Virus record (IMG/VR): IMGVR_UViG_3300023435_000659 | Location: 4,060 to 68,059 of that record | Source of the DNA: a virus | Direction: 5' to 3' (one strand) | DNA length: 64,000 bases | Shown here: positions 5,065 to 37,107 of the stretch, one piece after another | Numbering within the stretch: the stretch's first letter is position 1 | How the letters are laid out: each line of letters opens with the position of its first letter | The notes under the pieces: generated by a model | Told to the model about the DNA's origin: nothing | What the model saw: the letters and a program-made list of their open reading frames with translations, nothing else | Databases searched by the model: none | Translations under genes and position numbers: made by a program

Positions 5065-5340
5065 TTATTCCTTTTTGTTGTGTTGTGCTTCATCCCGCTT
5101 CCGCGCGAACTCCTGTGAGAGATCGTGCTGGACCTGGATGTAGATTCGGTCATATTCTTCCTGGGTGATTATGCCTTTGTTGATTAGGAGGACGATGAGG
5201 GCACCGTAGGCAGTGGCGTGGGTTTGGTTAGCTTCGTTGAATTTGCTTCCGAGCAGTTGTATTTGCTGCTTGCTGGTAGCGGTGAGCTCATCCAAGACTT
5301 CTAAAATTTGTTTTATCAGTTGAATTCCTTCGTTGTTCAT
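5065..5340 (-). CDS. Hypothetical protein
   Basis: ATGA overlap with recombinase stop; LLINKGIITQEEY (SHOCT-like) motif. Confidence 0.65.
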   Translation of the reverse strand: MNNEGIQLIKQILEVLDELTATSKQQIQLLGSKFNEANQTHATAYGALIVLLINKGIITQEEYDRIYIQVQHDLSQEFARKRDEAQHNKKE

Positions 5341-5915
5341 TGCCACTCCCTTTTCTTCAATTTGCTATTCATCAAATCCGGCCGCAGCCGGTGCAAATAC
5401 CGAGACGTGGTTGACGTATGGACGTGGCCAAGTTGACTGGCGATGGTCGCCAAGTCGAACCCTTCTTCCAGCAGTTCGGACGCCGCGGTATGTCGTAGGC
5501 CGTGTAGGTGGCATCGACGATTGATACCGGCTTTCTCGCGAAGTCGAGCGATCTTGTGTCGGTAGTGGCTGGGATCGAGGTGGTTCCCGCGTGCTTGCTT
5601 GTTGGTGGCACAAAAGAACGGATTGTGGCCGTTAATTTCGAGCGACCTTCGACGTTCTGCCCAAGTCTTGAGGATATCCATAGCCCCGTCATCAAGCACG
5701 ACCGCACGGCCCTTCCCACCCTTATCGTTGTGGATGATGAGCATCTTCCGGTCCCAGTTGACGTCGGATGGGCGAATGTGCAAGGTGGCACTGATTCGCG
5801 TGCCGCCACGGTAGAGCGTTACGAATACGGCTTTGTCGCGGATGCCTGAAGTGGTGTTCGAGCAGGCTGCAAGTAGGGCCTTGGCTTCATCGCGCGAAAG
5901 TGGTTGAGGAAACAT
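5337..5915 (-). CDS. Tyrosine recombinase, catalytic domain only (192 aa)
   Basis: GTRISA (R), DKGGK (K), HGLRH (HxxR), QLGH, TTSRY (Y); no N-terminal core/arm-binding domain. Confidence 0.92.
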   Translation of the reverse strand: MFPQPLSRDEAKALLAACSNTTSGIRDKAVFVTLYRGGTRISATLHIRPSDVNWDRKMLIIHNDKGGKGRAVVLDDGAMDILKTWAERRRSLEINGHNPFFCATNKQARGNHLDPSHYRHKIARLREKAGINRRCHLHGLRHTAASELLEEGFDLATIASQLGHVHTSTTSRYLHRLRPDLMNSKLKKREWQ

Positions 5916-5952
5916 AATCCAGTGCCTTTCTGGTGCCTAGAGTGAAAAAGAG

Positions 5953-6010
5953 GTCGCGCGGCGGGCCGCTAGGCTGGCGGTGTTCGGTGGCTACACCTAC
6001 GCCGCACGAC
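5953..6010 (-). ncRNA. C4-antisense-like three-way-junction RNA in the recombinase leader
   Basis: 11-bp outer stem GUCGUGCGGCG/CGCCGCGCGAC enclosing GGUGU/ACACC and GCC/GGC hairpins; loop GCCUAG complementary to CUAGGC (5935-5940) near the RBS. Confidence 0.55.
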
Positions 6011-6046
6011 GTTTGAGGCTGAGGCCCCGTCTTTCTACATTTCGGC

Positions 6047-6075
6047 ATTCTATGTTCCATCTCAATTCATGTCAA
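6047..6075 (-). promoter_or_regulatory. Leftward sigma70 promoter
   Basis: TTGACA-17 bp-TAGAAT on the minus strand. Confidence 0.8.
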
Positions 6076-6082
6076 TATCGTC

Positions 6083-6111
6083 TTGACCATAATTGCGAGA
6101 AGTGCTAGAAT
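6083..6111 (+). promoter_or_regulatory. Rightward sigma70 promoter (leaderless xre mRNA)
   Basis: TTGACC-17 bp-TAGAAT; ATG 6 nt downstream; GTCAA-N7-TTGAC palindrome (6071-6087) spans both -35 boxes. Confidence 0.75.
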
Positions 6112-6117
6112 TCTGAC

Positions 6118-6339
6118 ATGAACACACAAAATGTTATGGTGAATGTCCGCGCGCTGGCCAAGAAATCCGGTCTCACCCAGCAGGTAATTGGCGAGCGAAT
6201 GGGCTATCCTGTAAAATCGGCCCGAAAATCGGTCTCGCAATTCCTCAAGGGTGGTAATCCGACACTCAACGTGATTGTAAAATTCGCTGAGGCGATGGAG
6301 ACAAACGTGGAATCCCTGCTCTCACCGAAAATGAATTGA
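6118..6339 (+). CDS. XRE/Cro-CI family HTH regulator
   Basis: GLTQQVIGERMG...VSQFLKG.NPTL..IVKFAEAM pattern. Confidence 0.88.
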   Translation: MNTQNVMVNVRALAKKSGLTQQVIGERMGYPVKSARKSVSQFLKGGNPTLNVIVKFAEAMETNVESLLSPKMN

Positions 6340-10289: not shown

Positions 10290-12188
10290 ATGGTAGCTTC
10301 ATACCCGGTTTTAGGTGGTGGTGTGCCTGCTGCTGTCGGGATGGGGCTTCCTTTGCCAGATCGGATCGGCGAGTCTGCTAAGCAAGCGGATGTCCCTGCC
10401 GGCCCCCTCACGCCGGATTTCATCAAGCGTCTCCATGACCAGATTGCAATGGCCGAAAAGGAGATGGAGACGTTTCGCGAGCAGAACAGGAAACGTCAGT
10501 CACTCTATGCCGGTCATGGTTACGGCACAAACGATGAAGAGGTTGATGCTCCGCTAAACGTCTACAACCTCGCCTTGCGAATCTACCAGCGGCGGCTCAT
10601 TAGTGGTGACCCCCGTGTCAACATACGGTCACGCTCCCCGAAGTCGCGACCTGAAGCCTACGAATTGTCCTTGGCTTGCGAACAATTGTTTCGTGAAATC
10701 AACCTCAAGGACACCATGAAAGAGGTTGTTCATCAAGGGCTGGAGAGTGTTGGCATTGTCAAGGTAGCCGTAACGCCTGGCGGCATGAATGAGTCGTTGG
10801 GGTTTCTGCATGATGCGTGGCAGCCGTTTTGCGATCCGGTTTTGCTGGAGAATTTCGCTTTCGATACGAACGCCAAGCGATGGGAAGAGATCGATTGGTG
10901 TGGGGACCGATACCGACTTCCGCTCGATGATCTACTGAATAACTCGGAGTGGGATCAGAAGATTGTTGCAACACTGGACAAGTCTCAGACTCGTCAGGAC
11001 GATGACTTGCGACAAAGCCCTGGTGACGAAAGCGTCCAGCGGATGGGTGTTGAAGATTCAGTGTTCCGCGATGACCTGCGGCAGTACGTTACCGTTTGGG
11101 ACATCTGGCTTCCGCGGGAGAAGCTATTAATTACCGTCCCCGACGGTCAGGGGCAACCGCTTCGTGTCAAGAAATGGGAGGGACCGGAAAATGGTCCGTA
11201 TCATCTGCTGCGGTTCGATCCACTTCCCGGCAACATCATGCCAGTATCTCCAGGTGGACACCTGGAAAGCCTTGCGAAACTGCTGAACCGAGCGATTCGG
11301 AAGCTGGGGAATCAGCTTGACAGGCAGAAGACAAACCCGACGATCACGCCTGCCGCTGCCAATGCTGGGGACGACAATACGATTAAGGATTGTCAAGATG
11401 GCGATGTCTTGCAACTGATGGATCCGAAGAATACCGGCGAGATTCGATCGGGTGGAATTGACCAGCAATCCTACGCATTCACTCAGGGCTTAATCAGTCT
11501 GTTCTCCTGGCTAGGTGGCAACCTTGATTCGCTTGGCGGGCTTGCGAGTAATGCTGGGACTGCCTCGCAACAGGAAATAGAACTGGCGGGTGCGAACAGC
11601 CTGATTGATGAGTTGAACGACCGGTTTACTGGATTCTTGCAGGGGGTTGTGACCGATTTGGCGTGGTACATCTACAAGGATCCCAAGGGGACACGCAGGT
11701 TAATCAAACGGGTAGAGGGCACCGATTGGGAAGTGCCGATACGCTGGGGGCCCAATCGGAGATCGCGATCGTTCTTTATGTTTGAGTTTGAGATTGATTC
11801 GTTCAGCATTCATGCCCGAACGCCGGAACAGCGGTTGCAGACAATTATGGAAATTATGCCGCGGATGATGCAAGCGGCGCAGGCCAAGATGATATTTGCC
11901 CAGGTCGGGGATGAATTGGATACGGAGGCGCTGTGGCGGTTGATTACCCGTTACACAGGGCTTACCGAGTTGTCGGAATTGATTCGATCTTCGGGTATAC
12001 CGATTACGGCTGAACCGGGTGGTGCGGATCGGATGCCCAGTGCGAACACAGGGATGCCGCACGAGTACATCCGCCGGAATGTTTCGAGCGGCGGTGGCGG
12101 CGGGGGGATGGCGCCGGGGCAGCAGGCATTGGCACAGATGATGTCGGCGGGCAACAATGGGGGCGGGCAGCAAGGAACACCAGCATGA
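10290..12188 (+). CDS. Portal protein
   Basis: 632 aa between TerL and scaffold/capsid; GIVKV, FDTNAKRWE, GTASQ motifs; Gln/Gly-rich tail as in P22-like portals. Confidence 0.82.
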   Translation: MVASYPVLGGGVPAAVGMGLPLPDRIGESAKQADVPAGPLTPDFIKRLHDQIAMAEKEMETFREQNRKRQSLYAGHGYGTNDEEVDAPLNVYNLALRIYQRRLISGDPRVNIRSRSPKSRPEAYELSLACEQLFREINLKDTMKEVVHQGLESVGIVKVAVTPGGMNESLGFLHDAWQPFCDPVLLENFAFDTNAKRWEEIDWCGDRYRLPLDDLLNNSEWDQKIVATLDKSQTRQDDDLRQSPGDESVQRMGVEDSVFRDDLRQYVTVWDIWLPREKLLITVPDGQGQPLRVKKWEGPENGPYHLLRFDPLPGNIMPVSPGGHLESLAKLLNRAIRKLGNQLDRQKTNPTITPAAANAGDDNTIKDCQDGDVLQLMDPKNTGEIRSGGIDQQSYAFTQGLISLFSWLGGNLDSLGGLASNAGTASQQEIELAGANSLIDELNDRFTGFLQGVVTDLAWYIYKDPKGTRRLIKRVEGTDWEVPIRWGPNRRSRSFFMFEFEIDSFSIHARTPEQRLQTIMEIMPRMMQAAQAKMIFAQVGDELDTEALWRLITRYTGLTELSELIRSSGIPITAEPGGADRMPSANTGMPHEYIRRNVSSGGGGGGMAPGQQALAQMMSAGNNGGGQQGTPA

Positions 12189-17098: not shown

Positions 17099-17752
17099 AT
17101 GTCTTCTGAAAACATCATGCGGTTGTTCAATGATGCTGTTACTAACGGCCGAGTTCGCCCCAGACTGAATATCATCGTCAAGACAGCCAGCTATACCGTC
17201 ACGTCGGGTGACTTTGGCTCGGTACTTACGACGCGCGGTGCTAGTGGCGAGGTGACGTTTACACTGCCCGCAGCTTCGTCTGTCAACAAAAACAACTGGG
17301 CGTTGTTTATCAACATCGCCGACGAGAACATGATCGTGGCCGGTGCCGATGAGGGGCTGGTTGTGTTCAATGACCTGACAGCCGACAGCATTGGTTTCGC
17401 GACGAACAGTGAGAAGATTGCTGGTGGGTTTTTGGCAATTTCGGATGGAACAAGCTGGCTGGTTCTGCCGATTGCGACGGAAACCCAGACTGTCAATGTT
17501 TTCACGGCTGCATCAACTTCACCTTCGGCTTCACCGTCGCCGTCGAGTTCACCGTCACCTTCGGCTTCGGTGTCAAGTTCGCCGTCGACCTCAGTATCTG
17601 GTTCACCTTCAACCTCACCTTCGGCTTCACCGTCACCGTCGAGTTCACCGTCACCTTCGGATTCACCATCGGCTTCGCCATCACCATCGACCTCACCTTC
17701 GGCTTCGCCTTCTGGTTCGCCATCGGATTCACCGTCAAGTTCGTCGTCGTAA
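17099..17752 (+). CDS. Putative virion decoration protein, copy 2, with mucin-like Ser/Pro tail
   Basis: Paralog of 16583..16996 with near-identical 5' DNA, plus about 79 aa of SPSxS repeats. Confidence 0.8.
   Translation: MSSENIMRLFNDAVTNGRVRPRLNIIVKTASYTVTSGDFGSVLTTRGASGEVTFTLPAASSVNKNNWALFINIADENMIVAGADEGLVVFNDLTADSIGFATNSEKIAGGFLAISDGTSWLVLPIATETQTVNVFTAASTSPSASPSPSSSPSPSASVSSSPSTSVSGSPSTSPSASPSPSSSPSPSDSPSASPSPSTSPSASPSGSPSDSPSSSSS
17513..17749 (+). repeat. Ser/Pro/Thr low-complexity coding repeat
   Basis: TCACCNTCN-type units encoding SPSASPSPSS. Confidence 0.9.
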
Positions 17753-17761
17753 ACCGCCTTT

Positions 17762-17792
17762 GGCATGGGGTGGCAATGGACCGCCCCATGCC
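17762..17792 (+). promoter_or_regulatory. Intergenic hairpin between structural and GT genes
   Basis: GGCATGGGGTGG-N7-CCGCCCCATGCC; no T-tract. Confidence 0.5.
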
Positions 17793-17807
17793 GTGGATGT
17801 TAGTACA

Positions 17808-18536
17808 ATGAATGACTTGACCATCATCTACCTGACAGTCAATCAGATGCCGAAGTGCTGGGTGGAATTCCAGTTATCGCATCTTCGTCATGCAGCAGAG
17901 GGAAGGCCCATCATCTCAATTTCGCGAGAGCCGATGGACCTGGGGCACAACATCTTGCAAACTGGGCCGTTCGGGTACTGGAACATTTATCGGCAATTGT
18001 GTATCGGTGCAAAACTTGCCGAGACGCCTTATGTATCGCTGGCAGAAGACGATGTGCTGTATCCACCGCATCACTTCAGTGCCTTTCGTCCTCCTGCTGA
18101 TTCTGTGTCGTACAATCGGGCAAGATGGTCCCTGTTTACTTGGGACCCGATCTACTGTCTCAGGCAGCGAGTGTGCAATTGCACGCTGATTGCTCCGCGA
18201 GCACTTCTGATTGAGGCACTTGAAGAACGGATGGCGAAACACCCAGACGGTGATTCTCTTCCGGATACCCATGTAGGCGAGGTTGGTCGTCCGAGAGTGG
18301 ATCAGCGACTTAGGGTTAAGAGTCGCAAGAGCGTCGAATGGTGGTCGACTGCACCGGTTGTTCAGCTTAATCACTCAAGTGGAATTGATGTCAGGCAAAA
18401 CCAACAGCGCAAGGAACACGGTCAACTCAGGGCGCACGACGTTCCTTACTGGGGTAAAGCCGTAGACATTGCCGCAAAATATCTCGGAAGGCCCGTAGAG
18501 GTTCCCAAGAAACACAAGGAAAAAACACTGCAATGA
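17808..18536 (+). CDS. GT-A fold glycosyltransferase (GT2-like)
   Basis: LTIIYLT...GAKLAETPYVSLAEDDVLY (xDD motif). Confidence 0.7.
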   Translation: MNDLTIIYLTVNQMPKCWVEFQLSHLRHAAEGRPIISISREPMDLGHNILQTGPFGYWNIYRQLCIGAKLAETPYVSLAEDDVLYPPHHFSAFRPPADSVSYNRARWSLFTWDPIYCLRQRVCNCTLIAPRALLIEALEERMAKHPDGDSLPDTHVGEVGRPRVDQRLRVKSRKSVEWWSTAPVVQLNHSSGIDVRQNQQRKEHGQLRAHDVPYWGKAVDIAAKYLGRPVEVPKKHKEKTLQ

Positions 18537-19117
18537 ATCCACACGAATGTATTTCAGAGACGTTCAGTACCAAGGAACGTCGTGACAGTATGCCGCGATT
18601 GTTACGCCGAGGAACCAGGGATGATCTTGGAAAGGTCTTCAAGACCCTTGGATACCGGGATGGAGTAGAGGTGGGTACGAGGAAGGGCATTTTTGCCGAG
18701 ATCCTTTGCCGTGCTCATCCCGACATGCACCTGCGATGTGTCGATCCGTGGATGGGATACAACAGCGTGAGTCAGAAACGCCAGAATCTCATCTATCCCG
18801 AAGCCGTAAAACGGTTGTCGAAGTACAACGCAACCATCATCCGCAAGACAAGTATGGACGCGGTTGCTGATTTCGAGGATAGGTCACTTGATTTCATTTA
18901 CATCGACGGGAATCACAAGTTCGATTTCGTGATGCTGGATTTGATTCACTGGGTGCCCAAGATACGGAAGGGCGGGATTGTGTCGCTGCACGATTACAGG
19001 CCGGGACATTGGGCTGGTGTCGTGGAGGCAGTGGACGCCTACACGCGGTGCCATGATATTCGTCCGTGGTACGTGACCAGGGAAGGGGAGCCAACGGCAT
19101 TATGGGTTCAAGGGTAG
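18533..19117 (+). CDS. Class I SAM methyltransferase (Methyltransf_24-like)
   Basis: VEVGTRKG, VDPW, DFIYIDGNH, GGIVSLHDY. Confidence 0.88.
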   Translation: MNPHECISETFSTKERRDSMPRLLRRGTRDDLGKVFKTLGYRDGVEVGTRKGIFAEILCRAHPDMHLRCVDPWMGYNSVSQKRQNLIYPEAVKRLSKYNATIIRKTSMDAVADFEDRSLDFIYIDGNHKFDFVMLDLIHWVPKIRKGGIVSLHDYRPGHWAGVVEAVDAYTRCHDIRPWYVTREGEPTALWVQG

Positions 19118-19121
19118 GTAG

Positions 19122-19499
19122 ATGTTGCCAAGTATTGGAACACTGCAAGCTAAGGTTTGGGGTGACACTCGGTTACTCTATGCTGCCAACAACACACACT
19201 GCCACCTGATTAGATTTAGGAATGGAGGGTACTGCTCGAAGCACCGACACCAGCACAAGTGGAATCGCTTTGTCGTCCTCCAGGGGACGTTGATCGTCCG
19301 CATCTTTCGGAATGAGAAGATTCACGAGGAAACGACGGTACGAGAAGGCCAAATGACTGATGTGCCTCCGGGCGTTTGGCATCAGTTTGAGGCTTCAGAG
19401 GATGGCGAGGCGCTGGAATTCTATTGGGCCGAACTGGACGCAGAAGACATCGAGAGGAAGACGGAAGGAGGCATGGAGTGCGAAGCGTCGAGTCCGTAG
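19122..19499 (+). CDS. Cupin-domain protein (possible sugar isomerase)
   Basis: KVWG...CSKHRHQHK...VPPGVWHQF. Confidence 0.85.
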   Translation: MLPSIGTLQAKVWGDTRLLYAANNTHCHLIRFRNGGYCSKHRHQHKWNRFVVLQGTLIVRIFRNEKIHEETTVREGQMTDVPPGVWHQFEASEDGEALEFYWAELDAEDIERKTEGGMECEASSP

Positions 19500-19936
19500 A
19501 GCACCTGTGGAAATCACGCGCCAAGATCAGGCAGCGCAACAAGCGACGTCACGTAGAGAAGCTGCACAACACATTCCTGGAAGTGGTGGAGAATCTAGCA
19601 AGAGGCGAAGAGTACGATCCAGACCGGATGCGATCTTCGTCTTTTTTTCAATACATCCGTCGATACTACCAGCACTGGCAAGAGGAGCCGCTATCGGAAA
19701 GAGCCGACCGAGAAGTGCGGGAGCGAATGCAAGATGGAATCGACCTGTTTCACGACATCAAGCAGAGCGGTATGCGTGATCCGCTGGAGATGTTTATGCA
19801 AAGAGGCAGGCGGTATTTGGTTCTCGGTAACCGGCGGTTGGTGATCCTGCACGTTTTGGGCACGCCAGAGGCAGAAGTGTTGACCCACACGAGTTTTGAC
19901 GCATACTGCAAATCCCAGGAAGCGAAAGCCAGATGA
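19478..19936 (+). CDS. ParB/sulfiredoxin-like domain protein
   Basis: DIKQSGMRDPL...LVLGNRRL; GGAGG RBS before GTG 19478. Confidence 0.6.
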   Translation: MRSVESVEHLWKSRAKIRQRNKRRHVEKLHNTFLEVVENLARGEEYDPDRMRSSSFFQYIRRYYQHWQEEPLSERADREVRERMQDGIDLFHDIKQSGMRDPLEMFMQRGRRYLVLGNRRLVILHVLGTPEAEVLTHTSFDAYCKSQEAKAR

Positions 19937-20790
19937 AGGTATTTGTGCTAAACGATACGTCTTCGGTCAAGCGGCGTGGGAGAACGCATGACCATGCTGG
20001 CTCAAATGCCACGATGCGGGAATTGTATTCACTGCTGGCTGGACACGAGATCGTTGGCAGGCATTACGCCGGGTCGAGGAAGATAAAGAGCACCATTGCT
20101 GACAGCGACTTGGTTATCTGCAATGGCGAAGGGACGATGCACCACGACCGCTGGCAGGTGCATCTCATTATGGATGCGTTGCGCGAGGCTCAGGAACGAG
20201 GGCAAAAGACGGCACTGGTGAATTCAGTATGGCACGAAAACGGCAGGCGATATGATGACGTGCTGGACCGATTGGATTTCTTGTCGTTCCGGGAGATAAA
20301 CAGCCATGAGGCGTCTGGATGTCGTGGCAGGATATACCCGGACTTGGTGTTTGGCGGGGCATTTCTTTTGTCGCCGAAAAACAGAAGGTCGGAAATTTGC
20401 AAAGGCAACGATGTGGGAGGGATACTGAATTCGCTTCCGTACCGTCGCATCCCAGTGGAGGGTAGTTTCCAGGAGTGCATCGACCTGATGGCGGACTGCG
20501 CAGTGTACATTACGGGACAGTACCACGGCGTTATCTTGGCGATTATGACGAACACTCCATTTGTCGCCATACGGGGGAACACGCCGAAGATCGAAGGGTT
20601 GGTAAGAACTGCGGGGGTCAACATTGAGGTGTACGGGGACACGAATGACATGGGCGAACGTGTGGAGGCAGCCCGGAAGCGTCAAGACGCATTTGATGTC
20701 ATTCATGCTTACTACAGGAATGTGTTACTGCTACAGACGTGTCCTGAATTTTTGGAATTGTTGGGACTTAAACATCGTGAATATGCCTGA
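19933..20790 (+). CDS. Polysaccharide pyruvyltransferase family protein
   Basis: HAGS, NGEGTMH, SFRE..S, PDL, TGQYHG, TPKIEGL. Confidence 0.8.
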   Translation: MKVFVLNDTSSVKRRGRTHDHAGSNATMRELYSLLAGHEIVGRHYAGSRKIKSTIADSDLVICNGEGTMHHDRWQVHLIMDALREAQERGQKTALVNSVWHENGRRYDDVLDRLDFLSFREINSHEASGCRGRIYPDLVFGGAFLLSPKNRRSEICKGNDVGGILNSLPYRRIPVEGSFQECIDLMADCAVYITGQYHGVILAIMTNTPFVAIRGNTPKIEGLVRTAGVNIEVYGDTNDMGERVEAARKRQDAFDVIHAYYRNVLLLQTCPEFLELLGLKHREYA

Positions 20791-20805: not shown

Positions 20806-21555
20806 ATGAGAGTTTCCGTTATCATCCCAGTTCTCAACAGCCACGAAGTGGTACGAAGGCAGATTCTGCACTTCGAGAGGATGAACCTGCCGGATGATGT
20901 TGAGATCATCATTATGGATGACGGAAGCGACCCGCCGTTGAAATTCGATACCGACGTTGTAACAATCCACCAGACCAACGAGACGCGGCCGTGGACGAGT
21001 TCCATTGCACGCAATCGGGGTGCGGAGATCGCCAAAGGCCGCAACTTAATTATGGCCGACGTGGGCTACATCATCCCCAAGAAGATGATAATGGAGGTGC
21101 ATGAGTTCACGGGTCAGAAGATGCAATGCATCCGCGAGTTCGGCGTGCTCGACGAAAACGGCTGTTTTACGCAAGATCGCGAAACCCTATTGGATTACGG
21201 TCTTTTGCCGGCCCGTTATGAAAGGCGAGGCGCCACGATACCACCGCATCCAAACGTCTACGCCATGAATCGTGACATCTTCCTTGAATTGGGAGGTTAC
21301 AACGAAGGACTTGTTCTTCGACGGCAGTACCCCCAGGGTGAAGACAATCTCTGGAAACACGTTTGGGCCAAGTGGCAGAAGGCAGGAAAGGGGCAGGTTG
21401 ATGAGTACCGGCCGACAGTCTATATGTTCCCGCGTGGGCAATTTTGCGGGGATGTGGATTACAACCCGCACAATCTGTTCCACGGCTTGACTCGCAAGAC
21501 CAGGACCAACGTGTTCTGGCACCGGCAATTGCGACGGGAGGCGAAGGCGAAATGA
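20806..21555 (+). CDS. Glycosyltransferase family 2 (GT7C-like C-terminus)
   Basis: VSVIIP, DDGS, ARNRGA, GGYNE...GED. Confidence 0.88.
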   Translation: MRVSVIIPVLNSHEVVRRQILHFERMNLPDDVEIIIMDDGSDPPLKFDTDVVTIHQTNETRPWTSSIARNRGAEIAKGRNLIMADVGYIIPKKMIMEVHEFTGQKMQCIREFGVLDENGCFTQDRETLLDYGLLPARYERRGATIPPHPNVYAMNRDIFLELGGYNEGLVLRRQYPQGEDNLWKHVWAKWQKAGKGQVDEYRPTVYMFPRGQFCGDVDYNPHNLFHGLTRKTRTNVFWHRQLRREAKAK

Positions 21556-22733
21556 ACATTACGCTTCTCAGATGCCCGTCTCCGTTCCTGATTGACGAGA
21601 AGGTCTTTCCACCGCTCGGGTTGCTGACAGTTGGGACTGCGCTAAAGCGTCAAGGTTGCTGTGTTACCGTGCGTGACGAAGTAGTGCCATGGTCCGACTG
21701 GTACGGTGTCGGCCCTACGACAGCAGAATATTCGACAGCGAAGAAACTGCTGCGTGCGATCAAGCACGATCGGCCGGATGCGAAAGTGATGATTGGCGGC
21801 CCACACGCCTCAACCCGCCCTGATAAATGCCTAGAAGACGGGTTCGACGTTGTTGCCGTAGGGGACGGCGAGAATTTGACAGTAGAGATGCTTACGAGCG
21901 GTGTTATTCATTTGCCTGAGTTGTTGCTGGACAGTTATCCAATCATCGACAGAGATCTCTTGGATGAGGGCATCCATGGATACCACTACGAGATTAACGG
22001 GATTCCGGCAACGAGTATGATAACCTCCAGGGGTTGCCCGTATCGGTGCGCCTTTTGTTCCAAATACTCAACAGGCGTGCGGTTCAGAAGCGCTGGGCTT
22101 GTCAACGACGAGATTACCCTTTTGCATGAAGTCTTTGGCTTCAGCGCATTGATGTTCTACGACGACACGTTTATTCTCCGCCCGCAGCGAGTGCTGGAGA
22201 TTTGTAAGCACCTGAAGACTTTGGGCATTGTCTGGAGATGTTTTGTACGGGGCGATCTGATCGTGAAACATGGGATGGACTTCGTGAAGCTCATGGCGGA
22301 TTCTGGCTGTGTGGAAGTGGCGATGGGTGTGGAATCCGGGTCCGATGAGATACTGAAGGCCATCCACAAGGGAGAAACTGTTTCTGACATTCGCCGAGCG
22401 ACTGAATGGCTGGATCACTACGGCATTCGCGTCAAGGGCTTGTTTATCGTCGGCTTACCCGGCGAAAGCTGGGAGACGCTGGAAGACACTACCCGCTTGA
22501 TAAGCGAGTTGCCTTTTTCGGCATTGGACTTCACGGTCTTCCAACCCTACGCCGGCAGTCCGATTTACGAAAACAAGCAGGATTACGACATTGACTGGGA
22601 TGAATTGCCGTGGGATGAGAGTTACTTCAAAAGCCGACCCGGCGAATACCATTGTCATGTCCGAACTTCTTCGTTAAGCTCCAAGGAAATCGAGTCCGCG
22701 AGAAACAAACTAGAATTGACAGGAGCATTGTAG
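21552..22733 (+). CDS. B12-binding radical SAM protein (class B methylase-like)
   Basis: PPLGL, GGPHA, GDGE, SRGCPYRCAFC (CxxxCxxC), DDTF, GVESGS, GLPGE. Confidence 0.93.
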   Translation: MNITLLRCPSPFLIDEKVFPPLGLLTVGTALKRQGCCVTVRDEVVPWSDWYGVGPTTAEYSTAKKLLRAIKHDRPDAKVMIGGPHASTRPDKCLEDGFDVVAVGDGENLTVEMLTSGVIHLPELLLDSYPIIDRDLLDEGIHGYHYEINGIPATSMITSRGCPYRCAFCSKYSTGVRFRSAGLVNDEITLLHEVFGFSALMFYDDTFILRPQRVLEICKHLKTLGIVWRCFVRGDLIVKHGMDFVKLMADSGCVEVAMGVESGSDEILKAIHKGETVSDIRRATEWLDHYGIRVKGLFIVGLPGESWETLEDTTRLISELPFSALDFTVFQPYAGSPIYENKQDYDIDWDELPWDESYFKSRPGEYHCHVRTSSLSSKEIESARNKLELTGAL

Positions 22734-23684
22734 ATGACGTTTGCAAAGGACCTTTCGATTATTGTGCCGGGCAGAAATGAGCAGTTCATGCGGCATACGA
22801 TTGAAGACGTGCTTTCGCATAGTCGAGGCGACACGGAAGTAATCGCAGTCTGCGATGGTAGCTGGCCGGACCCGCCGCTGCAAGATCACCCACAAGTCAA
22901 GCTATTGCATACCACTACCCCAGTGGGCCAGCGGGCGGCGACAAACCTTGGGGTGCAATTGAGTCGCGCCAAGTACATTATGAAGCTGGACGCTCACTGT
23001 TCCACGGACGAGGGTTTCGACATCAAAATGATGGAGAAGATGCAGCCCGACTGGACAATGATTCCAAGTATGCACCGGCTGCATATCTTCGATTGGGCGT
23101 GTCCTGACTGTGGAGAACGAGTGTACCAGGGAGCCAAGCCGAAAACGTGCGAAGAATGTGGTGGCACCGAATTCTATATGCACATGGTTTGGGAACCTCG
23201 CTTGCAGTTCGATCCAACGGTGTCGTGGCTATTTGACAAAGCACTGCACTTCCAGTATTGGCGGAAACATAAGCGCCGACCCGAAGTGAAGGAGCAGGCC
23301 GAATCGGGCATCATCGAAACGATGTCCTGCATCGGCTGTGCGTTCCTGATGGAGCGGGAGCGGTTCTGTGAGTTGGGCGGCATGGATGAAGGGCATGGAA
23401 GCTGGGGGCAGTACGGCACAGAATTGGCCTGCAAGGCGTGGCTGTCTGGCGGGAAGATGGTAACGTGTCTCGATACCTGGATTGCACATCTCTTTAGAAC
23501 AGGGAATTTTTCCAAGGGCAATAACTCAAGTTGGCCATATCCGATCTCGCAACGAGACATCGACAAGGCCAGGAAGTATTCCAGAGACCTATGGCTAAAC
23601 GATAAGTGGCCGAAGGCGGTTCGTCCGCTTTCGTGGCTGATTGAACACTTTAAGCCAATACCGGCTTGGCATGACAAGAAGTAA
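22734..23684 (+). CDS. GT-A glycosyltransferase resembling polypeptide GalNAc-transferases (GT27-like), with a Zn-ribbon insert
   Basis: SIIVPGRNE, KLDAHC (DxH), GGMDEG.GSWG...EL..KAWLSGG, IAHLFR...PY; CPDC/CEEC insert. Confidence 0.8.
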   Translation: MTFAKDLSIIVPGRNEQFMRHTIEDVLSHSRGDTEVIAVCDGSWPDPPLQDHPQVKLLHTTTPVGQRAATNLGVQLSRAKYIMKLDAHCSTDEGFDIKMMEKMQPDWTMIPSMHRLHIFDWACPDCGERVYQGAKPKTCEECGGTEFYMHMVWEPRLQFDPTVSWLFDKALHFQYWRKHKRRPEVKEQAESGIIETMSCIGCAFLMERERFCELGGMDEGHGSWGQYGTELACKAWLSGGKMVTCLDTWIAHLFRTGNFSKGNNSSWPYPISQRDIDKARKYSRDLWLNDKWPKAVRPLSWLIEHFKPIPAWHDKK

Positions 23685-24877: not shown

Positions 24878-26704
24878 ATGGCTGAATTTGCAATCAAGAT
24901 CGGCGACAGCGATAGCTACGATGACAAGGACATCATCGCCGCCTTCAGCGACCGGCATATCCAAGCCACGCACATGCAGCACCTTACGCACAAGCGGCTT
25001 GCCACGAAGAACGGCCATGGCTTGATGTTGCCCGGCTCGCTTATCCAGGCTCGGCTGGAGCGGGTAAGTGAGTTCCGATTCGAGCGGATAGACAAACGTA
25101 TGGTGCAAAGAATCGTCATTGCAACAAGCGAAGTTCAAAGCCTTAGTCATACGCCGAACGCGGCCGGCGAGTACATGGACGTTGTGGAGTTCGTTGCTCG
25201 GCGGTTGCGGTTCGCCAAGAAACCAATGTTTGGCCGCCCCGGTCGCGAAGTCTGGTACGGCGGCAACACAGACTATAGCCAAGCGGCCGTGGATGACGTT
25301 TGGCATCACATTGAAACGCATACCGAACACCGCAAGGCGAATTACGATCTATTCCCTGCCGGTACACGCGACCTGATAGATCATTTTTTCATCAAGACCG
25401 ACGCCTTTGACGATGCGACGGCGGATGAGTTGGTGGCTCCACTGCTTGACGACAAGGATGAGTTGGTGGCTCCACTGCTTGACGACAAGGACGAGACAAT
25501 CAAGAAACGCAAGCACCAGGTCAAGTGGGACGAGTTGCCGGGTATCTCAGCCAAGTCACGAGACGATATCCGCAACAAGAACAAGAGCGTGGACGGTAGA
25601 CGCAAGGGCAGTTTCAAGCGTGCTGATATCGTAGTCGTAAAATCCCTGATGGCAACAATCACCAAGAGCATCGGCACGTCAGCAGACCCAGCCCGCGACT
25701 ACAGCACAATAACGTTGTGGGAGGCTGCGTTGGGTGGTGCTGCCGGTGGTGCTGGTAATGACGCTGATGGCGAGTGCTATGCCGACAGCGATTTTGACGA
25801 AGATGTCGTGCTCGATGACGCAACACCAGACAGCATACTATTGACTGTACCAGAAGCAGAACGACACGATGGTACAGCCGATTCTGGTGTGAGGGTGCTG
25901 TGCAGCACAAGTCGTGGTCTCAATGTCACTACCAATGTCCCAACTATAGTGGAATGGTTAGAATGGGATGTAAATGGAAATCCACCAGACCATACGACTT
26001 ATTCTATATTCAAGTCTTCCGGAGATGACCCTACATTTAGAAACAATATCCTCCATGATGTATATGAAGACCCAAGCGGTTCCAATACAAGGGGAATTCT
26101 CATAGGTGACCCCGGAGTAGTCACTAATAATATCATCTATGATTTACAATCAGATGGGACTGCCAATAGGCATATGCATGGAATTCTAGTTGGTTCATCG
26201 TCTGGCGATGCTGCGTCGATTTACAACAACACTGTTTGGAATATCCGTCGAGAATCAACAGCAGGTAACGTGTGGGGTATCAGTATAGATGATGATGTTG
26301 TGGTTAAAGTTGCCAAAAATAACATCGCAATGGGTATCTCTGCTTTCAGTGGCACGGAACTTTGCTTTGAGAATATCTCTGGATACACGAATAGTGTTTT
26401 TGATTACAACTTGTCATCCGATGATTCACTTCCAGATGCTTTACACAATGTCGAAAGCAAAGCAGCAGCAAACCAATTCATTTCAACTGTAGATGGTAGT
26501 GAAGACCTGCACCTGAAAGCTGGAGCCGATGCAATTGGAGCAGGAACAGACCTCGGCACAACGCCAGATGGCGTGCAGTACGACATTAACAATTTCGACA
26601 GGCACACGGCGGCTGTGGTCTGGGACATCGGAGCGGATCAGTACGTTGCGGTCGTTTCCGGCAACCCATGGTATTACTACGCTCAACAAGGGGCAGCGGC
26701 ATGA
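24878..26704 (+). CDS. Two-part protein with C-terminal parallel beta-helix (tailspike/pectin-lyase-like)
   Basis: FRNNILHD, VTNNIIYD, IYNNTVWN, KNNIA, DLHLK...DIGADQY; 33-nt duplication (DELVAPLLDDK x2). Confidence 0.7.
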   Translation: MAEFAIKIGDSDSYDDKDIIAAFSDRHIQATHMQHLTHKRLATKNGHGLMLPGSLIQARLERVSEFRFERIDKRMVQRIVIATSEVQSLSHTPNAAGEYMDVVEFVARRLRFAKKPMFGRPGREVWYGGNTDYSQAAVDDVWHHIETHTEHRKANYDLFPAGTRDLIDHFFIKTDAFDDATADELVAPLLDDKDELVAPLLDDKDETIKKRKHQVKWDELPGISAKSRDDIRNKNKSVDGRRKGSFKRADIVVVKSLMATITKSIGTSADPARDYSTITLWEAALGGAAGGAGNDADGECYADSDFDEDVVLDDATPDSILLTVPEAERHDGTADSGVRVLCSTSRGLNVTTNVPTIVEWLEWDVNGNPPDHTTYSIFKSSGDDPTFRNNILHDVYEDPSGSNTRGILIGDPGVVTNNIIYDLQSDGTANRHMHGILVGSSSGDAASIYNNTVWNIRRESTAGNVWGISIDDDVVVKVAKNNIAMGISAFSGTELCFENISGYTNSVFDYNLSSDDSLPDALHNVESKAAANQFISTVDGSEDLHLKAGADAIGAGTDLGTTPDGVQYDINNFDRHTAAVVWDIGADQYVAVVSGNPWYYYAQQGAAA

Positions 26705-29700
26705 GTACGATATGGATGGATGTGGACGCAGCACTTGCCGAGGTGCCGGTGAACGTGGCGCCCTTGATTTCCGACAGTGATTTCAAAACTGTTGATGAGG
26801 GGATAGCCTACAACGAATCTAATATGGCGTTGTACTGGCATTTTACAACCACTGCCGGAGCAACAACCGTAACGGCGGTGACACCCACAACCAGTGGTCT
26901 ACACGATTGGGCTCATCAAGACCATGGGATGTACGCCATCGAGATCCCAACAGCCAGTGGAGATATCAACAATACAGAAGAGGGCTTTGGGTACTTCACT
27001 GGCGTTTGTGATGCGGTGTTGCCGTGGCGTGGGCCGACGATTGGGTTCAGGGCTGCCGCGATCAATAATCTCATGATCGACGACGCCGACCTGCTGACCG
27101 AAGTGATGTTCAACGATATCGTCTACGTGGACGACTCTGGCACGGCAGGCACGACGTGGCCGACCGGGTTGGCGTTCCAGCCGACGACCACGGTCGCGAG
27201 CGGCAAGGACATCGCCGACGCGATCAACATTAGACGACTCCACATCCACGGCTCGCATACGCTGGGCGAGGCGATGGAGCACTGGGCGTTCATCGCCGAC
27301 GGGCACATCGACACAGGCGACCTGTTCACACTGGGCGGTCAGAGCGTCGAGCATAGCACATTCGCGGGGATGATTATCACCGGGGCGATGGGGAGCACCA
27401 AGGGTGTGGCGAACGCCTGCCAGGCCATCGACTCCGCCGTCTATGCGGTGACGGACATGAACGCCTTGGTTCGCAACGGCTCCATAAGCGGGGCCTGCTC
27501 GATCCTTGATGACGGCTGGTTCGAGGCCGTTGATTGCAACTTCGGCTCACTGCTCGCCTGCACGCTGACAGTGCAAGGCTTGGGGGCAGGGTCGCATCTT
27601 CACATCCACGGAATGGGCGGGGAACTGACGCTGGCCGGAATGACTGAAGGGTCGGCCCAGATCGACATGAAGGCCGGGGCCGTGCTTATCATTGACAACA
27701 CCTGCTCGGCTGGTGCGCTAACGGTCACAGGCGACGGCACGGTCACGGGCACTGGCACTGGCACCTTCGCGTTGACGATCACGAAGCCGGTGGCGAACGC
27801 GGTTCAACTGGCGGGCGGAACCCAAAGCCTGACCGACCTGAAGGACTTCGCTGACACGGGCTATAATCCGGAAACGCACGCCGCAAATGCAGATATGATT
27901 ATGATTCACGGCTCCAACCTTACGGAAACCCCCGGACAACTTGCCGGGCGGTTCGTGAATTTCTTCGATCAGTCGGCGGCGGCGTACAATGTCAAAACAG
28001 CCCTTGCCGATTTCAAGGCAACAGGCTTTGCAACACCGACAAACATTACAGCGGGAACCATCACTACCGTTACGACCCTGAGCAACCTTCCGGCGTGCCC
28101 CGCCGATTGGCTCGACGCGGCTGGTATTAAAACAGGGGCGTTTTCCGCAGATGCCTTTGCTGCTGATGCTCTCGTGGCCGCTACGTTTGCTGCTTCTTCG
28201 CTGGACGGGAAGGGTGACTGGAGCACGGTAGTTCCTGATGCTGCGGGCGTTGTAGCGACAGCGCTGGGTAATCTCGAAACGCATGGCGATAGCACATGGG
28301 CAACGGCCACGGGGTTTTCTACTCACACGGCTGCCAACGTATTGACGGAGTTCGGCACGGGTTCTACGCTTACGGACTGCGCTACCGCAACGGGATTCAA
28401 TACGACCGTACCTGACGCTGCTGGCGTGGTAGCAACGGCACTCGGGTTACTCGAAACGCATGGAGACAGCGACTGGAAAACGGCCACGGGGTTCAGCACA
28501 CACGCGGCGGCAGACGTGTACACCGCCTTCGGGACCGGGGCCAATCTCACGACTTGTGCTACGGCAACCAGCACAACGTGCTCGGACAAGACCGGCTTTT
28601 CCGTCTCGCAAACCGGACTCGATGCGGTGCTCAAGACGACTACCTTCGCGTTGGCAATGGCCGATGCTACGTGGGATGAGGCGATCGCAGGCCACGCCAC
28701 CGGGACCACGTTCGGCGGGAAGAACCAGAAGGTTGTGCCCTCAGAGACGATTGACGATTACAAGGCGATCGGGTTCTCGACGCACAACGCGGCGGCGGTA
28801 TGGACGACAGGCAGTCGGGCACTGTCAACGCCAGCCGATTACAAAGCGGACGTATCGGCACTTGCCCTAGAGGCGTCGCTGTCCGACGGCTCGGTTACGC
28901 TACACAGCGACTACGATGCAGCGAAGACGGCTTACACCGGCACGCCGCCAACAGCCGACGCAATCACTACGGCAGTGTGGGCAGCGGGTACTCGCACGCT
29001 TACTTCATTCGGTTCGCTGGTCGCTGACATTGCAACGGCCGTTTGGGCGGCGACGACGCGCACGCTTACGGCGTTTGGTTTCACTGTGGTTACCGATGCC
29101 GCAAGTCGCACGGCAAGCAAGGCAACCGGATTCAGTACGCATACCGCGGCGGCCGTCAAGACGGAAATGGAAGCCGACGGATCCAAGCTCGACCATCTGT
29201 GGGAGATGACGGAAGACGACGACGGCACGCGACGGTTGACCGAAAACGCCCTCGAAGAGGCACCGGCGGGCGGCGGTGCTACGGCCGAAGAAGTCAGGAT
29301 CGAAATGGACAGCAACAGTACGCAGTTTGCAGCCATTGTCGAGGACACCAACGAACTGCAAACCGATTGGCTCAATGGCGGCCGGTTGGACAATCTCCTG
29401 GATACAGCGGCAAGTAGAGGAAGTAGTTCAACCGGCGAGGGAGCCTACACTGGCACACTGATCGTAGATGATGGCGAGGGGAACGGCCTTGCGGGTGCTG
29501 TGGTTGTCGCCCGCCGAAGCGGCATAGTGAAAGCCAGCGGTACGACAGACGATGATGGGCAGATTACTGACTGGGTATTTGACGCTTACACTTACGACTT
29601 GGCCGTGCGACTAGATAGTTACCAGCCGACAACAGATACTCTTGCAGTAAGTGCCGACGACTGGGAAAAGACGATCAGTTTGAGCGCCATGTCCATTACG

Positions 29701-30015
29701 TCGCCGAGTGCAATTTCGTTGTGTACGGTCCAGTTCCGTGTAATGCTTTCAGCCACGGCAGTAGAGGGAGCCGTCTGCAAGGCCAAGCTGCAAGGTATCA
29801 ATCAAGCATCGGATGGAACACTCCTGTCCAATGAAGAATTGTCCAGCACCACCAGTGCCCTCGGTGTGGCGGAATTGCAATTGGTCCGCAAAGACTCAAT
29901 CGTCAAGGGCAACGGCATCTACAAAATCTGGGTCGAGATTGCCGGGAAGCCGGTAGCCAGTGTGGAAACAACCATTCCTGGGCAAAGTGTCATATTGTTT
30001 GAAGACTTATTATAG
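26701..30015 (+). CDS. Large Ala/Thr-rich virion fibre/surface protein
   Basis: ATGA overlap; repeated ATGFSTH and AVW...TRTLT motifs; C-terminal carboxypeptidase-regulatory-like (GTTDDDG) domains. Confidence 0.7.
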   Translation: MSTIWMDVDAALAEVPVNVAPLISDSDFKTVDEGIAYNESNMALYWHFTTTAGATTVTAVTPTTSGLHDWAHQDHGMYAIEIPTASGDINNTEEGFGYFTGVCDAVLPWRGPTIGFRAAAINNLMIDDADLLTEVMFNDIVYVDDSGTAGTTWPTGLAFQPTTTVASGKDIADAINIRRLHIHGSHTLGEAMEHWAFIADGHIDTGDLFTLGGQSVEHSTFAGMIITGAMGSTKGVANACQAIDSAVYAVTDMNALVRNGSISGACSILDDGWFEAVDCNFGSLLACTLTVQGLGAGSHLHIHGMGGELTLAGMTEGSAQIDMKAGAVLIIDNTCSAGALTVTGDGTVTGTGTGTFALTITKPVANAVQLAGGTQSLTDLKDFADTGYNPETHAANADMIMIHGSNLTETPGQLAGRFVNFFDQSAAAYNVKTALADFKATGFATPTNITAGTITTVTTLSNLPACPADWLDAAGIKTGAFSADAFAADALVAATFAASSLDGKGDWSTVVPDAAGVVATALGNLETHGDSTWATATGFSTHTAANVLTEFGTGSTLTDCATATGFNTTVPDAAGVVATALGLLETHGDSDWKTATGFSTHAAADVYTAFGTGANLTTCATATSTTCSDKTGFSVSQTGLDAVLKTTTFALAMADATWDEAIAGHATGTTFGGKNQKVVPSETIDDYKAIGFSTHNAAAVWTTGSRALSTPADYKADVSALALEASLSDGSVTLHSDYDAAKTAYTGTPPTADAITTAVWAAGTRTLTSFGSLVADIATAVWAATTRTLTAFGFTVVTDAASRTASKATGFSTHTAAAVKTEMEADGSKLDHLWEMTEDDDGTRRLTENALEEAPAGGGATAEEVRIEMDSNSTQFAAIVEDTNELQTDWLNGGRLDNLLDTAASRGSSSTGEGAYTGTLIVDDGEGNGLAGAVVVARRSGIVKASGTTDDDGQITDWVFDAYTYDLAVRLDSYQPTTDTLAVSADDWEKTISLSAMSITSPSAISLCTVQFRVMLSATAVEGAVCKAKLQGINQASDGTLLSNEELSSTTSALGVAELQLVRKDSIVKGNGIYKIWVEIAGKPVASVETTIPGQSVILFEDLL

Positions 30016-35898: not shown

Positions 35899-37107
35899 AT
35901 GGGCGCAGGTTCACACAGTGAATCTCTCTCGCTGGGTGGCCGGTCGTTGACTCGGACGGCAACCGTGAGTGGAGAAAATGACACTCTATTGGGCGGAACG
36001 AGTTCGCCAATCTCGCTGGCAGCCGGGAACACCGTAACCAATTGGGTAAAGACCGATGCCGATACGGCGTCATGCGTTTTGCCTTCCGGTCACGGCTACA
36101 CAAGCGGAAAGTTCGACGTGTATTCCTTGGCAGGCGTTATTTACCGTTATGTAGTGCAAGGCACGGTATCCGGCAACAATCTGACGCTGGATGGTGGGTC
36201 GGTGCAATGTGGCGGTGCTGGTTTCCCCAACAGCGAAACTGATGGGGTTATTGTCTGCAAGCAGCAGCAGCACAATGTTTCCTTGGATGGGGACAATGCG
36301 GTTCTGGTGGGCATACTGGCGACGTGTCCGGCGCACCTGGATATGCAGGATGCAGATAGTGACACGATTCGGGAAGTAACCTTATCGGCCAGCGAACCTG
36401 ACCTTTGGGATAGTGGGCAGGCGGTGAACCCCTACACGGGCGATCCAATCACCAAAATTCGTCTTAGCAACGGTTCGACGACGGCCGGCACGTTCCAGAT
36501 ACTGATTTCCCAGGATTCGGAAGTGTACCTGTCACCGTCAGAATCACCGTCAGCTTCGGTATCCGGTACGCCGTCGACTTCACCTTCGAGTTCGGTGTCA
36601 AGTTCGCCGTCAACTTCGGTGTCTGATTCGCCGTCGGATTCACCTTCGACTTCACCGTCACCTTCAACCTCGCCTTCAACTTCGGTGTCAAGTTCGCCGT
36701 CGGATTCACCGTCGACTTCACCGTCACCTTCAACCTCGCCTTCAACTTCGGTGTCAAGTTCACCTTCAACTTCGGTGTCTGATTCGCCGTCGGATTCACC
36801 GTCGACTTCACCGTCACCTTCAACCTCGCCTTCAACTTCGGTGTCAAGTTCACCGTCGGATTCACCATCGGCTTCGCCATCACCATCGACCTCACCATCG
36901 GCTTCGGTGTCAAGTTCACCTTCAACTTCGGTGTCAAGTTCGCCGTCGGATTCACCGTCGACTTCACCGTCACCTTCAACCTCGCCTTCAACTTCGGTGT
37001 CAAGTTCACCTTCGGATTCACCATCGGCTTCGCCATCACCATCGACCTCACCATCGGCTTCGCCGTCGAGTTCGCCGTCGGATTCGCCATCCAGTTCGTC
37101 GTCGTAA
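35899..37107 (+). CDS. Putative virion protein with ~191-aa mucin-like Ser/Pro/Thr tail
   Basis: AGGAG RBS; beta-rich N-domain then SPSTSVSSSPSDS repeats. Confidence 0.8.
   Translation: MGAGSHSESLSLGGRSLTRTATVSGENDTLLGGTSSPISLAAGNTVTNWVKTDADTASCVLPSGHGYTSGKFDVYSLAGVIYRYVVQGTVSGNNLTLDGGSVQCGGAGFPNSETDGVIVCKQQQHNVSLDGDNAVLVGILATCPAHLDMQDADSDTIREVTLSASEPDLWDSGQAVNPYTGDPITKIRLSNGSTTAGTFQILISQDSEVYLSPSESPSASVSGTPSTSPSSSVSSSPSTSVSDSPSDSPSTSPSPSTSPSTSVSSSPSDSPSTSPSPSTSPSTSVSSSPSTSVSDSPSDSPSTSPSPSTSPSTSVSSSPSDSPSASPSPSTSPSASVSSSPSTSVSSSPSDSPSTSPSPSTSPSTSVSSSPSDSPSASPSPSTSPSASPSSSPSDSPSSSSS
36532..37104 (+). repeat. Ser/Pro/Thr coding repeat
   Basis: 47 nt (37006-37052) identical to 17651-17697. Confidence 0.92.

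Follow-up and report, generated by a model that had tools for sequence, protein, structure and literature searches.

Mucin-type O-glycosylation and the glycosyltransferases (GTs) of family GT27 that initiate it, the polypeptide N-acetylgalactosaminyltransferases (GalNAc-Ts), are treated as a eukaryotic and Golgi-based invention. What, then, does a gene of this appearance do in the genome of a tailed phage? Here, we address this question for a 64,000-nucleotide stretch of the IMG/VR record IMGVR_UViG_3300023435_000659 (positions 4,060 to 68,059; hereafter the window), which makes up most of a 68,059-bp virus record with a CheckV completeness of 100%. The gene, at positions 22734..23684 of the window, had been predicted from the letters of the DNA to encode a GT27-like enzyme. 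Judged by sequence profile and modelled fold, GT27 catalytic domains are the nearest known relatives of this enzyme, its gene is statistically coupled to long runs of Ser, Thr and Pro (S/T/P), and the enzyme most likely initiates cytoplasmic O-glycosylation of such S/T/P tails, a reading to which we assign a probability of about 0.6.

Nearest relatives of the phage enzyme

The open reading frame (ORF) proposed for the gene is confirmed, on the plus strand and with a product of 316 amino acids (aa), and all motifs originally quoted for it are found in their places in the translation, namely KLDAHCS at residues 84-90 (hence D86-x-H88), ETMSCIGCAFLMERERF at residues 195-211, KAWLSGG at 234-240, IAHLFR at 250-255 and WPYP at 267-270. 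No PHROG family is assigned to the protein, and in Pfam the family Glycos_transf_2 (PF00535) matches residues 8-112 (3.8e-12, 46.9 bits against a cut-off of 23.3) and Glyco_transf_7C matches residues 197-242 below threshold.

A phmmer search against all PDB chain sequences returned 22 sequences at E ≤10, the top 16 of which were polypeptide GalNAc-Ts, with GALNT10 as the best match (3.3e-10); PDB entry 8uhv, labelled just 'Glycosyl transferase', is Toxoplasma GalNAc-T3. With a profile built from an alignment of 42 family members, the first 15 of 33 PDB matches were all GalNAc-Ts, at E-values from 1.3e-19 to 8.7e-11. For the AlphaFold2 (AF2) model of the protein (predicted local distance difference test, pLDDT, 93.3; predicted template modelling score, pTM, 0.91), GalNAc-Ts accounted for all 30 among the Foldseek matches listed (ranks 1-50), with E-values from 4.7e-16 to 5e-13 and template modelling (TM) scores, by query, of 0.54-0.66. 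Additionally, a VIA-align run over 48,161 PDB representatives, independent of Foldseek, gave mouse GalNAc-T1 a Z of 26.1 (271 residues aligned, root-mean-square deviation 2.9) and Toxoplasma GalNAc-T3 a Z of 24.0, with K4 chondroitin polymerase (17.9), AvpGT (17.3), WrtF (17.3), the Leptospira GT 6p61 (17.2) and SpsA (17.0) below the GalNAc-Ts. The comparison of GALNT structures with bacterial GT2 enzymes that the original prediction had suggested thus places GALNT ahead, and there is no clustering with ordinary GT2s, because profile, Foldseek and VIA-align all put GT27 first by a clear margin. The earlier description as GT27-like, and not as an ordinary polysaccharide GT2, is in this respect well supported.

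An ordinary GT2, with a likeness to GT27 that comes from the shared GT-A fold and a convergent DxH motif, would agree with Glycos_transf_2 being the sole Pfam call above cut-off, with the names 'GT2 family' or 'cell wall biosynthesis' that relatives bear in public sources, and with an identity to GalNAc-Ts of merely 18-20%. We regard this explanation as very improbable, since both halves of the protein match GalNAc-Ts by profile, the C-terminal half with a domain E-value of ~1e-10, whereas solved bacterial GT2s (3bcv from Bacteroides, 6p61 from Leptospira, GalT1 5hea and K4 chondroitin polymerase) match the first ~100 residues only, at E 2e-9 or weaker. Further, the Z gap over the best GT2 amounts to 6-8 units for the whole chain, and all three metal ligands align.

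The equivalence of the metal ligands follows from a position count in the HMMER alignment with 1xhb (offset 87), in which D86, H88 and H252 fall on chain positions 122, 124 and 257, corresponding to Asp209, His211 and His344 of mouse GalNAc-T1. In passages of the respective papers, these three residues are the Mn2+ triad of that enzyme (PMC4202792), and the equivalent triad of Toxoplasma T3 is Asp276/His278/His414 (PMC11074326). By alignment, the GT27-type Mn2+ triad of DxH and distal His is kept in the phage family, and the HxFR and W..GG blocks are likewise conserved. Columns invariant across the 42 aligned sequences are T22, G65, N71, K84, D86, H88, D96, G201, W236, G239, H252, Y269 and F306, and R255 of HLFR is present in at least 90% of the sequences.

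The GT-A domain of mouse GalNAc-T1, human T2 and T10 and Toxoplasma GalNAc-T3 is superposable over the whole phage protein, model residues 2-316 aligning to residues 113-429 of GalNAc-T1. The differences that had been foreseen hold as well. There is no membrane anchor or N-terminal extension, because the first Rossmann beta-strand starts at residue 7 of the model, and no ricin-type lectin domain, as the protein ends at residue 316 and has no ricin match in Pfam. In place of WGGEN the phage enzyme has WGQYG, with WGGENLE of GalNAc-T1, T9 and T10 aligning to W224-G-Q-Y-G-T-E230, and the 15 closest relatives all share W224, G225, Q226, G228 and E230. The four-cysteine (Cys4) CxxC..CxxC insert, at residues 123-142 (CPDC at 123-126, CEEC at 139-142), gives sub-threshold zinc-ribbon/rubredoxin-like matches including DUF7129; its four Cys are invariant in the same 15 relatives, the insert is missing from several distant members of the 42-sequence alignment, and it and other loops make up the ~45 residues of the model left without a counterpart in the superposition on GalNAc-T1. 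As three features of GT27 membership are therefore absent, namely the lectin domain, the type II membrane anchor with stem and the WGGEN motif, we call the proteins a GT27-like sister family and not members of GT27. Unlike the Golgi enzymes, moreover, the phage enzyme comes from tailed phages and presumably works in the cytoplasm of bacteria.

The family has many members and is almost exclusively viral. A word-indexed search found 3,693 proteins at E ≤1e-3 among 3,804 candidates, and the best 120 of these 3,693 are 65-84% identical to the phage enzyme, all metagenomic, and carry at most the two names quoted above. Among 50%-identity representatives, searched exhaustively, there were 1,538 matches at E ≤1e-3, 623 at ≤1e-10 and 240 at ≤1e-30. 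In IMG/VR, at least 571 contigs encode a relative, and the nearest ESM-Atlas clusters are 90-100% viral, with the exception of one cluster with few records that is 57% bacterial. Across one genome each for 185,579 prokaryote species, 18 loci had patterns of close relatives, all of them on contigs of metagenome-assembled genomes (MAGs) with scattered taxonomy, several being Planctomycetota/PVC; we judge these loci to be binned phage contigs and hence claim no host. No match at E 1e-5 was obtained by tblastn against 50,697 GenBank phage records, a set that may lack entries close to this genome, in a search for relatives in cultured phages. In the literature searched, supplements aside, neither a phage GT27-like enzyme nor glycosylated S/P/T repeat tails in phages are described. 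GT27 is listed a single time in a table of automatically assigned CAZymes from a virome (PMC9602057), and passages of two papers on GalNAc-Ts (PMC4202792, PMC11074326) describe the family solely from eukaryotes.

Ser/Thr/Pro runs in the neighbourhood of the gene

As with GT27, the phage enzyme is associated with Ser/Thr/Pro-rich, mucin-like candidate acceptor sequences. The Ser/Pro (S/P) tails that the original prediction had named exist on two proteins, at 17099..17752 and 35899..37107 (Table 1), and both carry the same repeat, the latter protein ending in the same SPSDSPSSSSS. The N-domain of the smaller carrier belongs to a viral family, and for one of the near Atlas clusters the automatic name is 'head decoration protein', which we take as a lead only. 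The larger carrier lies 12 kb downstream, in the tail-gene block, and its repeat run occupies residues 202-403.

The coupling between enzyme and repeats was assessed in the 80 best IMG/VR loci seeded with the GT27-like gene (the GT ±10 kb, 1.21 Mb), and compared with a control of 120 viral loci (0.99 Mb) picked at random by means of an arbitrary 15-mer. Loose runs, defined as ≥30 aa with ≥70% S+T+P, were present in 69/80 GT loci and in 27/120 control loci, where the matches were mostly short off-frame artefacts or poly-Ser. Strict runs, which in addition had to reach ≥40 aa, contain ≤3% R/C/W and not be homopolymers, were present in 61/80 GT loci against 2/120 control loci (Fisher p 1e-31). 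All of the strict runs (132/132) are on the strand of the GT, with the nearest run-bearing ORF at a median distance of 2,051 bp from it. In 58 of these 132 cases the run ends within the final 10% of the ORF, which means that many runs are genuine tails, and others are blocks of repeats inside the protein. Strict runs also occur in 10 of the 18 MAG-binned loci. The N-domain of the small carrier was found in 6/80 loci and that of the large carrier in 0/80; the coupling cannot come from common descent of a single tailed protein, because the N-domains of the carriers differ while the enzymes persist.

The cassette and the position of the enzyme in it

In the window, the GT27-like gene belongs to a cassette that forms one same-strand block directly after head-side genes and two paralogous small proteins. 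The cassette as a whole is located inside the structural block, on the same strand as the terminase, a weak SU10-like portal and large fibre-like ORFs. Of the 80 related loci, 65 contain GTx, a GT-A enzyme of no known family, and 65 the methyltransferase; 39 have the second GT2, 10 the radical-SAM (S-adenosylmethionine) enzyme and one the cupin, and none has the pyruvyl transferase. The conserved order is tailed protein, GTx, methyltransferase, sometimes GT2, sometimes the B12-radical-SAM enzyme, and the GT27-like gene. Phage-encoded GTs in a structural module beside proteins with terminal extensions are present both in the window and in the related loci. The B12-radical-SAM enzyme, which is HpnJ/PhpK-like, is a probable methyltransferase.

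Table 1. Coordinates of the features discussed, as positions in the window.
Feature	Position	Strand	Basis or remark
Tyrosine integrase	5337..5915	-	Phage_integrase 1.8e-37
Large terminase	6346..9177	+	In structural block carrying the cassette, same strand
Portal, SU10-type, weak match	10290..12188	+	
Tail-less paralogue of tailed small protein, 137 aa	16583..16996	+	Almost collinear sequences
Small tailed protein, 217 aa, candidate acceptor	17099..17752	+	~85-aa SPSxSxS tail, about residues 131-217; immediately upstream of cassette
GTx, GT-A glycosyltransferase of no known family	17808..18536	+	EDD motif, E80 and D82 invariant
Class I SAM methyltransferase (Methyltransf_24)	18533..19117	+	Pfam 2.2e-18
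WbuC-like cupin	19122..19499	+	NCBIfam TIGR04366 1.4e-9, below cut-off; Pfam Cupin_2
Protein of no assigned function	19424..19936	+	
Polysaccharide pyruvyl transferase	19933..20790	+	Pfam PS_pyruv_trans 6.8e-17
Second GT2 (Glyco_tranf_2_2 type)	20806..21555	+	
B12-binding radical SAM enzyme, HpnJ/PhpK-like	21549..22733	+	Pfam Radical_SAM and B12-binding; NCBIfam below equivalog cut-offs
GT27-like GT-A glycosyltransferase, 316 aa	22734..23684	+	ORF and translation
D86-A-H88, DxH metal motif	22989..22997	+	Invariant in 42 sequences
CxxC..CxxC zinc-ribbon insert (C123, C126, C139, C142)	23100..23159	+	CPDC 123-126, CEEC 139-142
WGQYGTE (224-230), where GT27 has WGGENxE	23403..23423	+	Alignment to GalNAc-Ts
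H252-L-F-R255, distal Mn2+ ligand His and next Arg	23487..23498	+	Alignment/conservation
402-aa protein, second candidate acceptor	35899..37107	+	~200-aa globular N-domain, then ~200 aa of SPSxSxS repeats

Among the three GTs of the cassette, a specific resemblance to peptide O-glycosyltransferases is seen in the GT27-like enzyme alone. GTx had no match in Pfam, NCBIfam, PHROG or PDB sequences, and its AF2 model (pLDDT 92.7) gave weak and generic GT-A fold matches to SpsA (1.9e-6), WrtF, AvpGT, TarP and PBCV-1 A64R. In a reciprocal scan of 80 loci seeded with GTx, the GT27-like gene was present in 75, and the other five end 8 to 3,134 bp past GTx, where the gene normally sits, so that no untruncated locus with GTx lacked the GT27-like gene. 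Conversely, 15 of the 80 GT27-seeded loci are without a detectable GTx, and nine of these 15 still have strict runs. One of the loci without GTx is a 12.5-kb contig (L029) that is collinear with the window from a 287-aa head-side protein to an SU10-type adaptor, and its cassette slot is reduced to the GT27-like gene, the methyltransferase, the tail-less paralogue and a paralogue with a Thr-rich tail; in a Pfam scan of 10 of its ORFs, a GT domain was found in the GT27-like gene only.

Based on these loci and on the specific likeness to peptide-acceptor enzymes, the GT27-like enzyme appears to be the best candidate for the first transfer. The same had been proposed in the original prediction for the S/P tails, and as an inference it is supported by the tail coupling, by the tailed loci that lack GTx and by L029. 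Alternatively, the tails could be O-glycosylated and the first sugar be added by GTx or another enzyme, with the GT27-like enzyme extending an already glycosylated peptide. Initiation and follow-up are indistinguishable by fold, some animal and Toxoplasma GalNAc-Ts, such as TgGalNAc-T3 in the passages concerned of PMC11074326, prefer glycopeptides, and GTx is almost as tightly linked as the GT27-like gene is (65/80 and 75/80 in the two scans) and directly follows the tailed gene in close relatives. We nevertheless consider this order of events unlikely, given that nine tail-bearing loci have the GT27-like gene and no detectable GTx, that the slot of L029 is without any other detectable GT, and that the best structural matches of GTx are GT-A enzymes with sugar or polyol acceptors.

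A cassette of this composition could also serve purposes unrelated to the tails, by modifying phage DNA or, in serotype conversion or superinfection exclusion, a glycan of the host envelope or a lipid-linked sugar, in which case the S/T/P runs would be flexible linkers common in the lineage. Phage GT2s commonly do such jobs according to the parts of two papers that bear on this (PMC12619734, PMC13326640), the window encodes an integrase, the pyruvyl transferase and the WbuC-like cupin are typical of polysaccharide loci, and many viral contigs carry S/P linkers without a GT27-like gene. These points are outweighed, in our view, and the explanation is improbable: the scanned cassette genes revealed neither a membrane segment nor a partner of the Wzx/Wzy/GtrA type, a base hydroxylase or hydroxymethylase of the ThyA type is absent, the cassette shares its strand with the late structural block that surrounds it, the coupling to long runs extends over non-homologous carriers, and the specific similarity is to peptide-acceptor enzymes. 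As to DNA, a ThyA-type gene is a requirement of the pathway for DNA glycosylation in the relevant passage of PMC13326640. No thymidylate-synthase homologue (PF00303) was found in the complete 68-kb genome or among the 10 replication-side proteins scanned, and glycosylation of DNA bases was therefore rejected as unlikely.

If the GT27-like enzyme indeed acts first, this stripped-down relative of the ppGalNAc-T catalytic domain would be a soluble, cytoplasmic and Mn2+-dependent GT-A enzyme that binds a nucleotide sugar via its DxH...H metal site late in infection and moves the first sugar to Ser/Thr hydroxyls of long, unstructured S/P/T-rich tails on proteins of the structural block. In this phage, the acceptors would be the small protein resembling head decoration proteins and the protein among the tail genes. 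The glycan would then be extended or decorated by GTx, the second GT2, the SAM methyltransferase, the B12-radical-SAM enzyme and the pyruvyl transferase, and the particle would end up with a mucin-like brush of glycans. We infer the peptide acceptor, the initiating position, the location of the carriers in the virion and the biological role from gene context and family relationship. The most far-reaching version, in which tailed phages possess a large, undescribed, virus-borne sister family of the eukaryotic initiators of mucin-type O-glycosylation, with true dense cytoplasmic O-glycosylation of S/P/T repeats and a methylated (here also pyruvylated) brush on head and tail proteins, is put forward tentatively, as something that we would sooner doubt than assert.

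Several observations weigh against initiation on virion-borne tails. The phage is uncultured and known from sequence alone. GT27 enzymes are retaining GTs that move GalNAc from UDP-GalNAc to Ser/Thr of a peptide. The Glu-Asn of their WGGEN motif contacts GalNAc, and these sugar-contact residues are not conserved in the phage enzyme, so the donor pocket would differ and the donor may not be UDP-GalNAc; the donor sugar is probably bound unlike UDP-GalNAc in GT27. A strict run within 10 kb is missing from 19/80 GT loci, several of which are short fragments. The control is unmatched for lineage, length and GC (mean locus 8.3 kb against 15 kb, GC 0.58 against 0.50), and the 80 loci are relatives, so that the counts are not independent events. 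In the reverse direction, with 120 loci seeded by SPSxSPSxSPS-coding DNA patterns and 120 control loci, the GT27-like gene was found in 6/120 S/P-seeded loci and 0/120 control loci, a weak association overall; most of what the S/P seeds picked up was (SP)n dipeptide linkers and contigs of giant viruses, and among the 11 S/P-seeded loci with strict runs of ≥100 aa, a length cut chosen post hoc, six hold a GT27-like gene. On the same count, the idea that every S/P tail implies a GT27-like gene was rejected. L029 is a 12.5-kb fragment, and a second GT may be located elsewhere in that genome or be invisible to Pfam. Finally, a scan of 10 large carriers with PHROGs and Pfam gave one beta-helix domain and two PHROGs of unknown function, the others having no match, and it is gene position, with this beta-helix match and the Atlas lead alongside, that suggests that the carriers are virion proteins.

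Many of the relatives among the 50%-identity representatives are fusions of 500-1,350 aa. Among 10 such long forms scanned, a second GT2 stretch was found in five and a C-terminal Methyltransf_24 in three, and in one (P0125) a GT2 domain is fused in front of the GT27-like domain. In the ORF at 9460..12264 of L064 and in P0122-P0130, the GT27-like domain is the N-terminal module of 560-1,350-aa fusions with a second GT2 and a Methyltransf_24/CmcI-type domain, and by their domain content the long fusions amount to the cassette as a single polypeptide.

Tail composition and reading frames were also recorded. Six of the loci without detectable GTx (L024 and L026-L030) have Thr/Ala-rich tails with almost no Pro, whereas GTx usually accompanies tails rich in Ser and Pro; the difference may stem from the type of acceptor or glycan, or from lineage alone. 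The DNA of the S/P repeats is open in other frames. Its +1 frame is Arg/His-rich and falsely extends the ORF of GTx upstream to 17391 (17391..17807), the true start probably being 17808, and its antisense strand contains a 191-aa Gly/Glu/Asp-repeat ORF (17191..17766, minus strand). Gene callers may go wrong in this stretch.

Related systems and further features of the genome

Serine-rich-repeat glycoproteins of Gram-positive bacteria are O-glycosylated in the cytoplasm by the GtfA/GtfB system, on very long Ser-rich repeats and with stepwise extension by further GTs of the same locus; the initiator is a pair of GT-B enzymes (GT4) that acts on adhesins destined for secretion, and the system is not known from phages. 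The phage cassette shares with it the long Ser-rich repeats and the presence of several GTs in one locus, and differs in that its enzyme is of the GT-A type and encoded by a phage, in contrast to the GT-B pair and the secreted substrates. The chlorovirus PBCV-1, a virus of eukaryotes, likewise has its own GT-A enzymes, and its capsid glycans are N-linked. Its A64R (PDB 2p6w), an enzyme for the PBCV-1 capsid protein, is among the fold matches of GTx and absent among the matches listed for the GT27-like model. For mycobacteriophages, phage-encoded GTs with glycans on the C-termini of capsid and tail-tube subunits have been reported (Freeman et al. 2023, Cell Host Microbe, as cited in a passage of PMC12619734), and self-glycosylation of virion protein termini by phages is, according to the same passage, already known. 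Our locus resembles that system in its phage-encoded GTs and terminal extensions, known here from genes alone. It differs in that the candidate acceptors, on carriers of various kinds, are long periodic S/P/T repeats that can reach hundreds of residues, and in that the cassette adds methyl, radical-SAM and pyruvyl enzymes.

If the proposed function is true, a minimal, soluble and lectin-less homologue, abundant among phages and coupled to mucin-like repeats, would be the counterpart of mucin-type O-glycosylation in a virus of prokaryotes and a possible evolutionary link, and a sister family would be relevant to how GT27 arose. The phages with glycosylated virions would grow in number from a few mycobacteriophages to include diverse uncultured phages of the environment, with consequences for host recognition, stickiness of the particles and protection from proteases or antibodies. 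Further, a small (316 aa), single-domain peptide O-glycosyltransferase, predicted to be active in the cytoplasm and with matched natural acceptor repeats, would be a candidate tool for bacterial glycoengineering.

The remaining features concern the phage as such. The terminase is unusually long (943 aa), with a PHROG match scattered over residues 88-889, which suggests a large insertion within it. The weak portal match in the window and a clear SU10 adaptor match (3e-13) at 5515..6249 of the collinear contig L029 hint at an SU10-like podophage lineage, and the phage may be temperate, given its integrase. A RecD2-like helicase is also encoded in the window. Outside the window, an ORF at C1:361..1122 of the genome (minus strand) contains the PP-loop motif SGGKDS, resembles a PAPS reductase or QueC on visual inspection, and adjoins a Cys-rich 461-aa ORF; together, the two may be a DNA-modification module. 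Downstream of the cassette, two proteins without a family match have a fibre-like look, a 608-aa protein (24878..26704, plus strand) with an exact tandem duplication that contains ELVAPLLDDKD twice and a 1,115-aa protein (26668..30015, plus strand) with repeated ~35-aa units (VPDAAGVVATALG.LETHGDS.W.TATGFSTH.AA), and a single ORF of 3,102 aa (43418..52726, plus strand) alone takes up ~14% of the phage genome.

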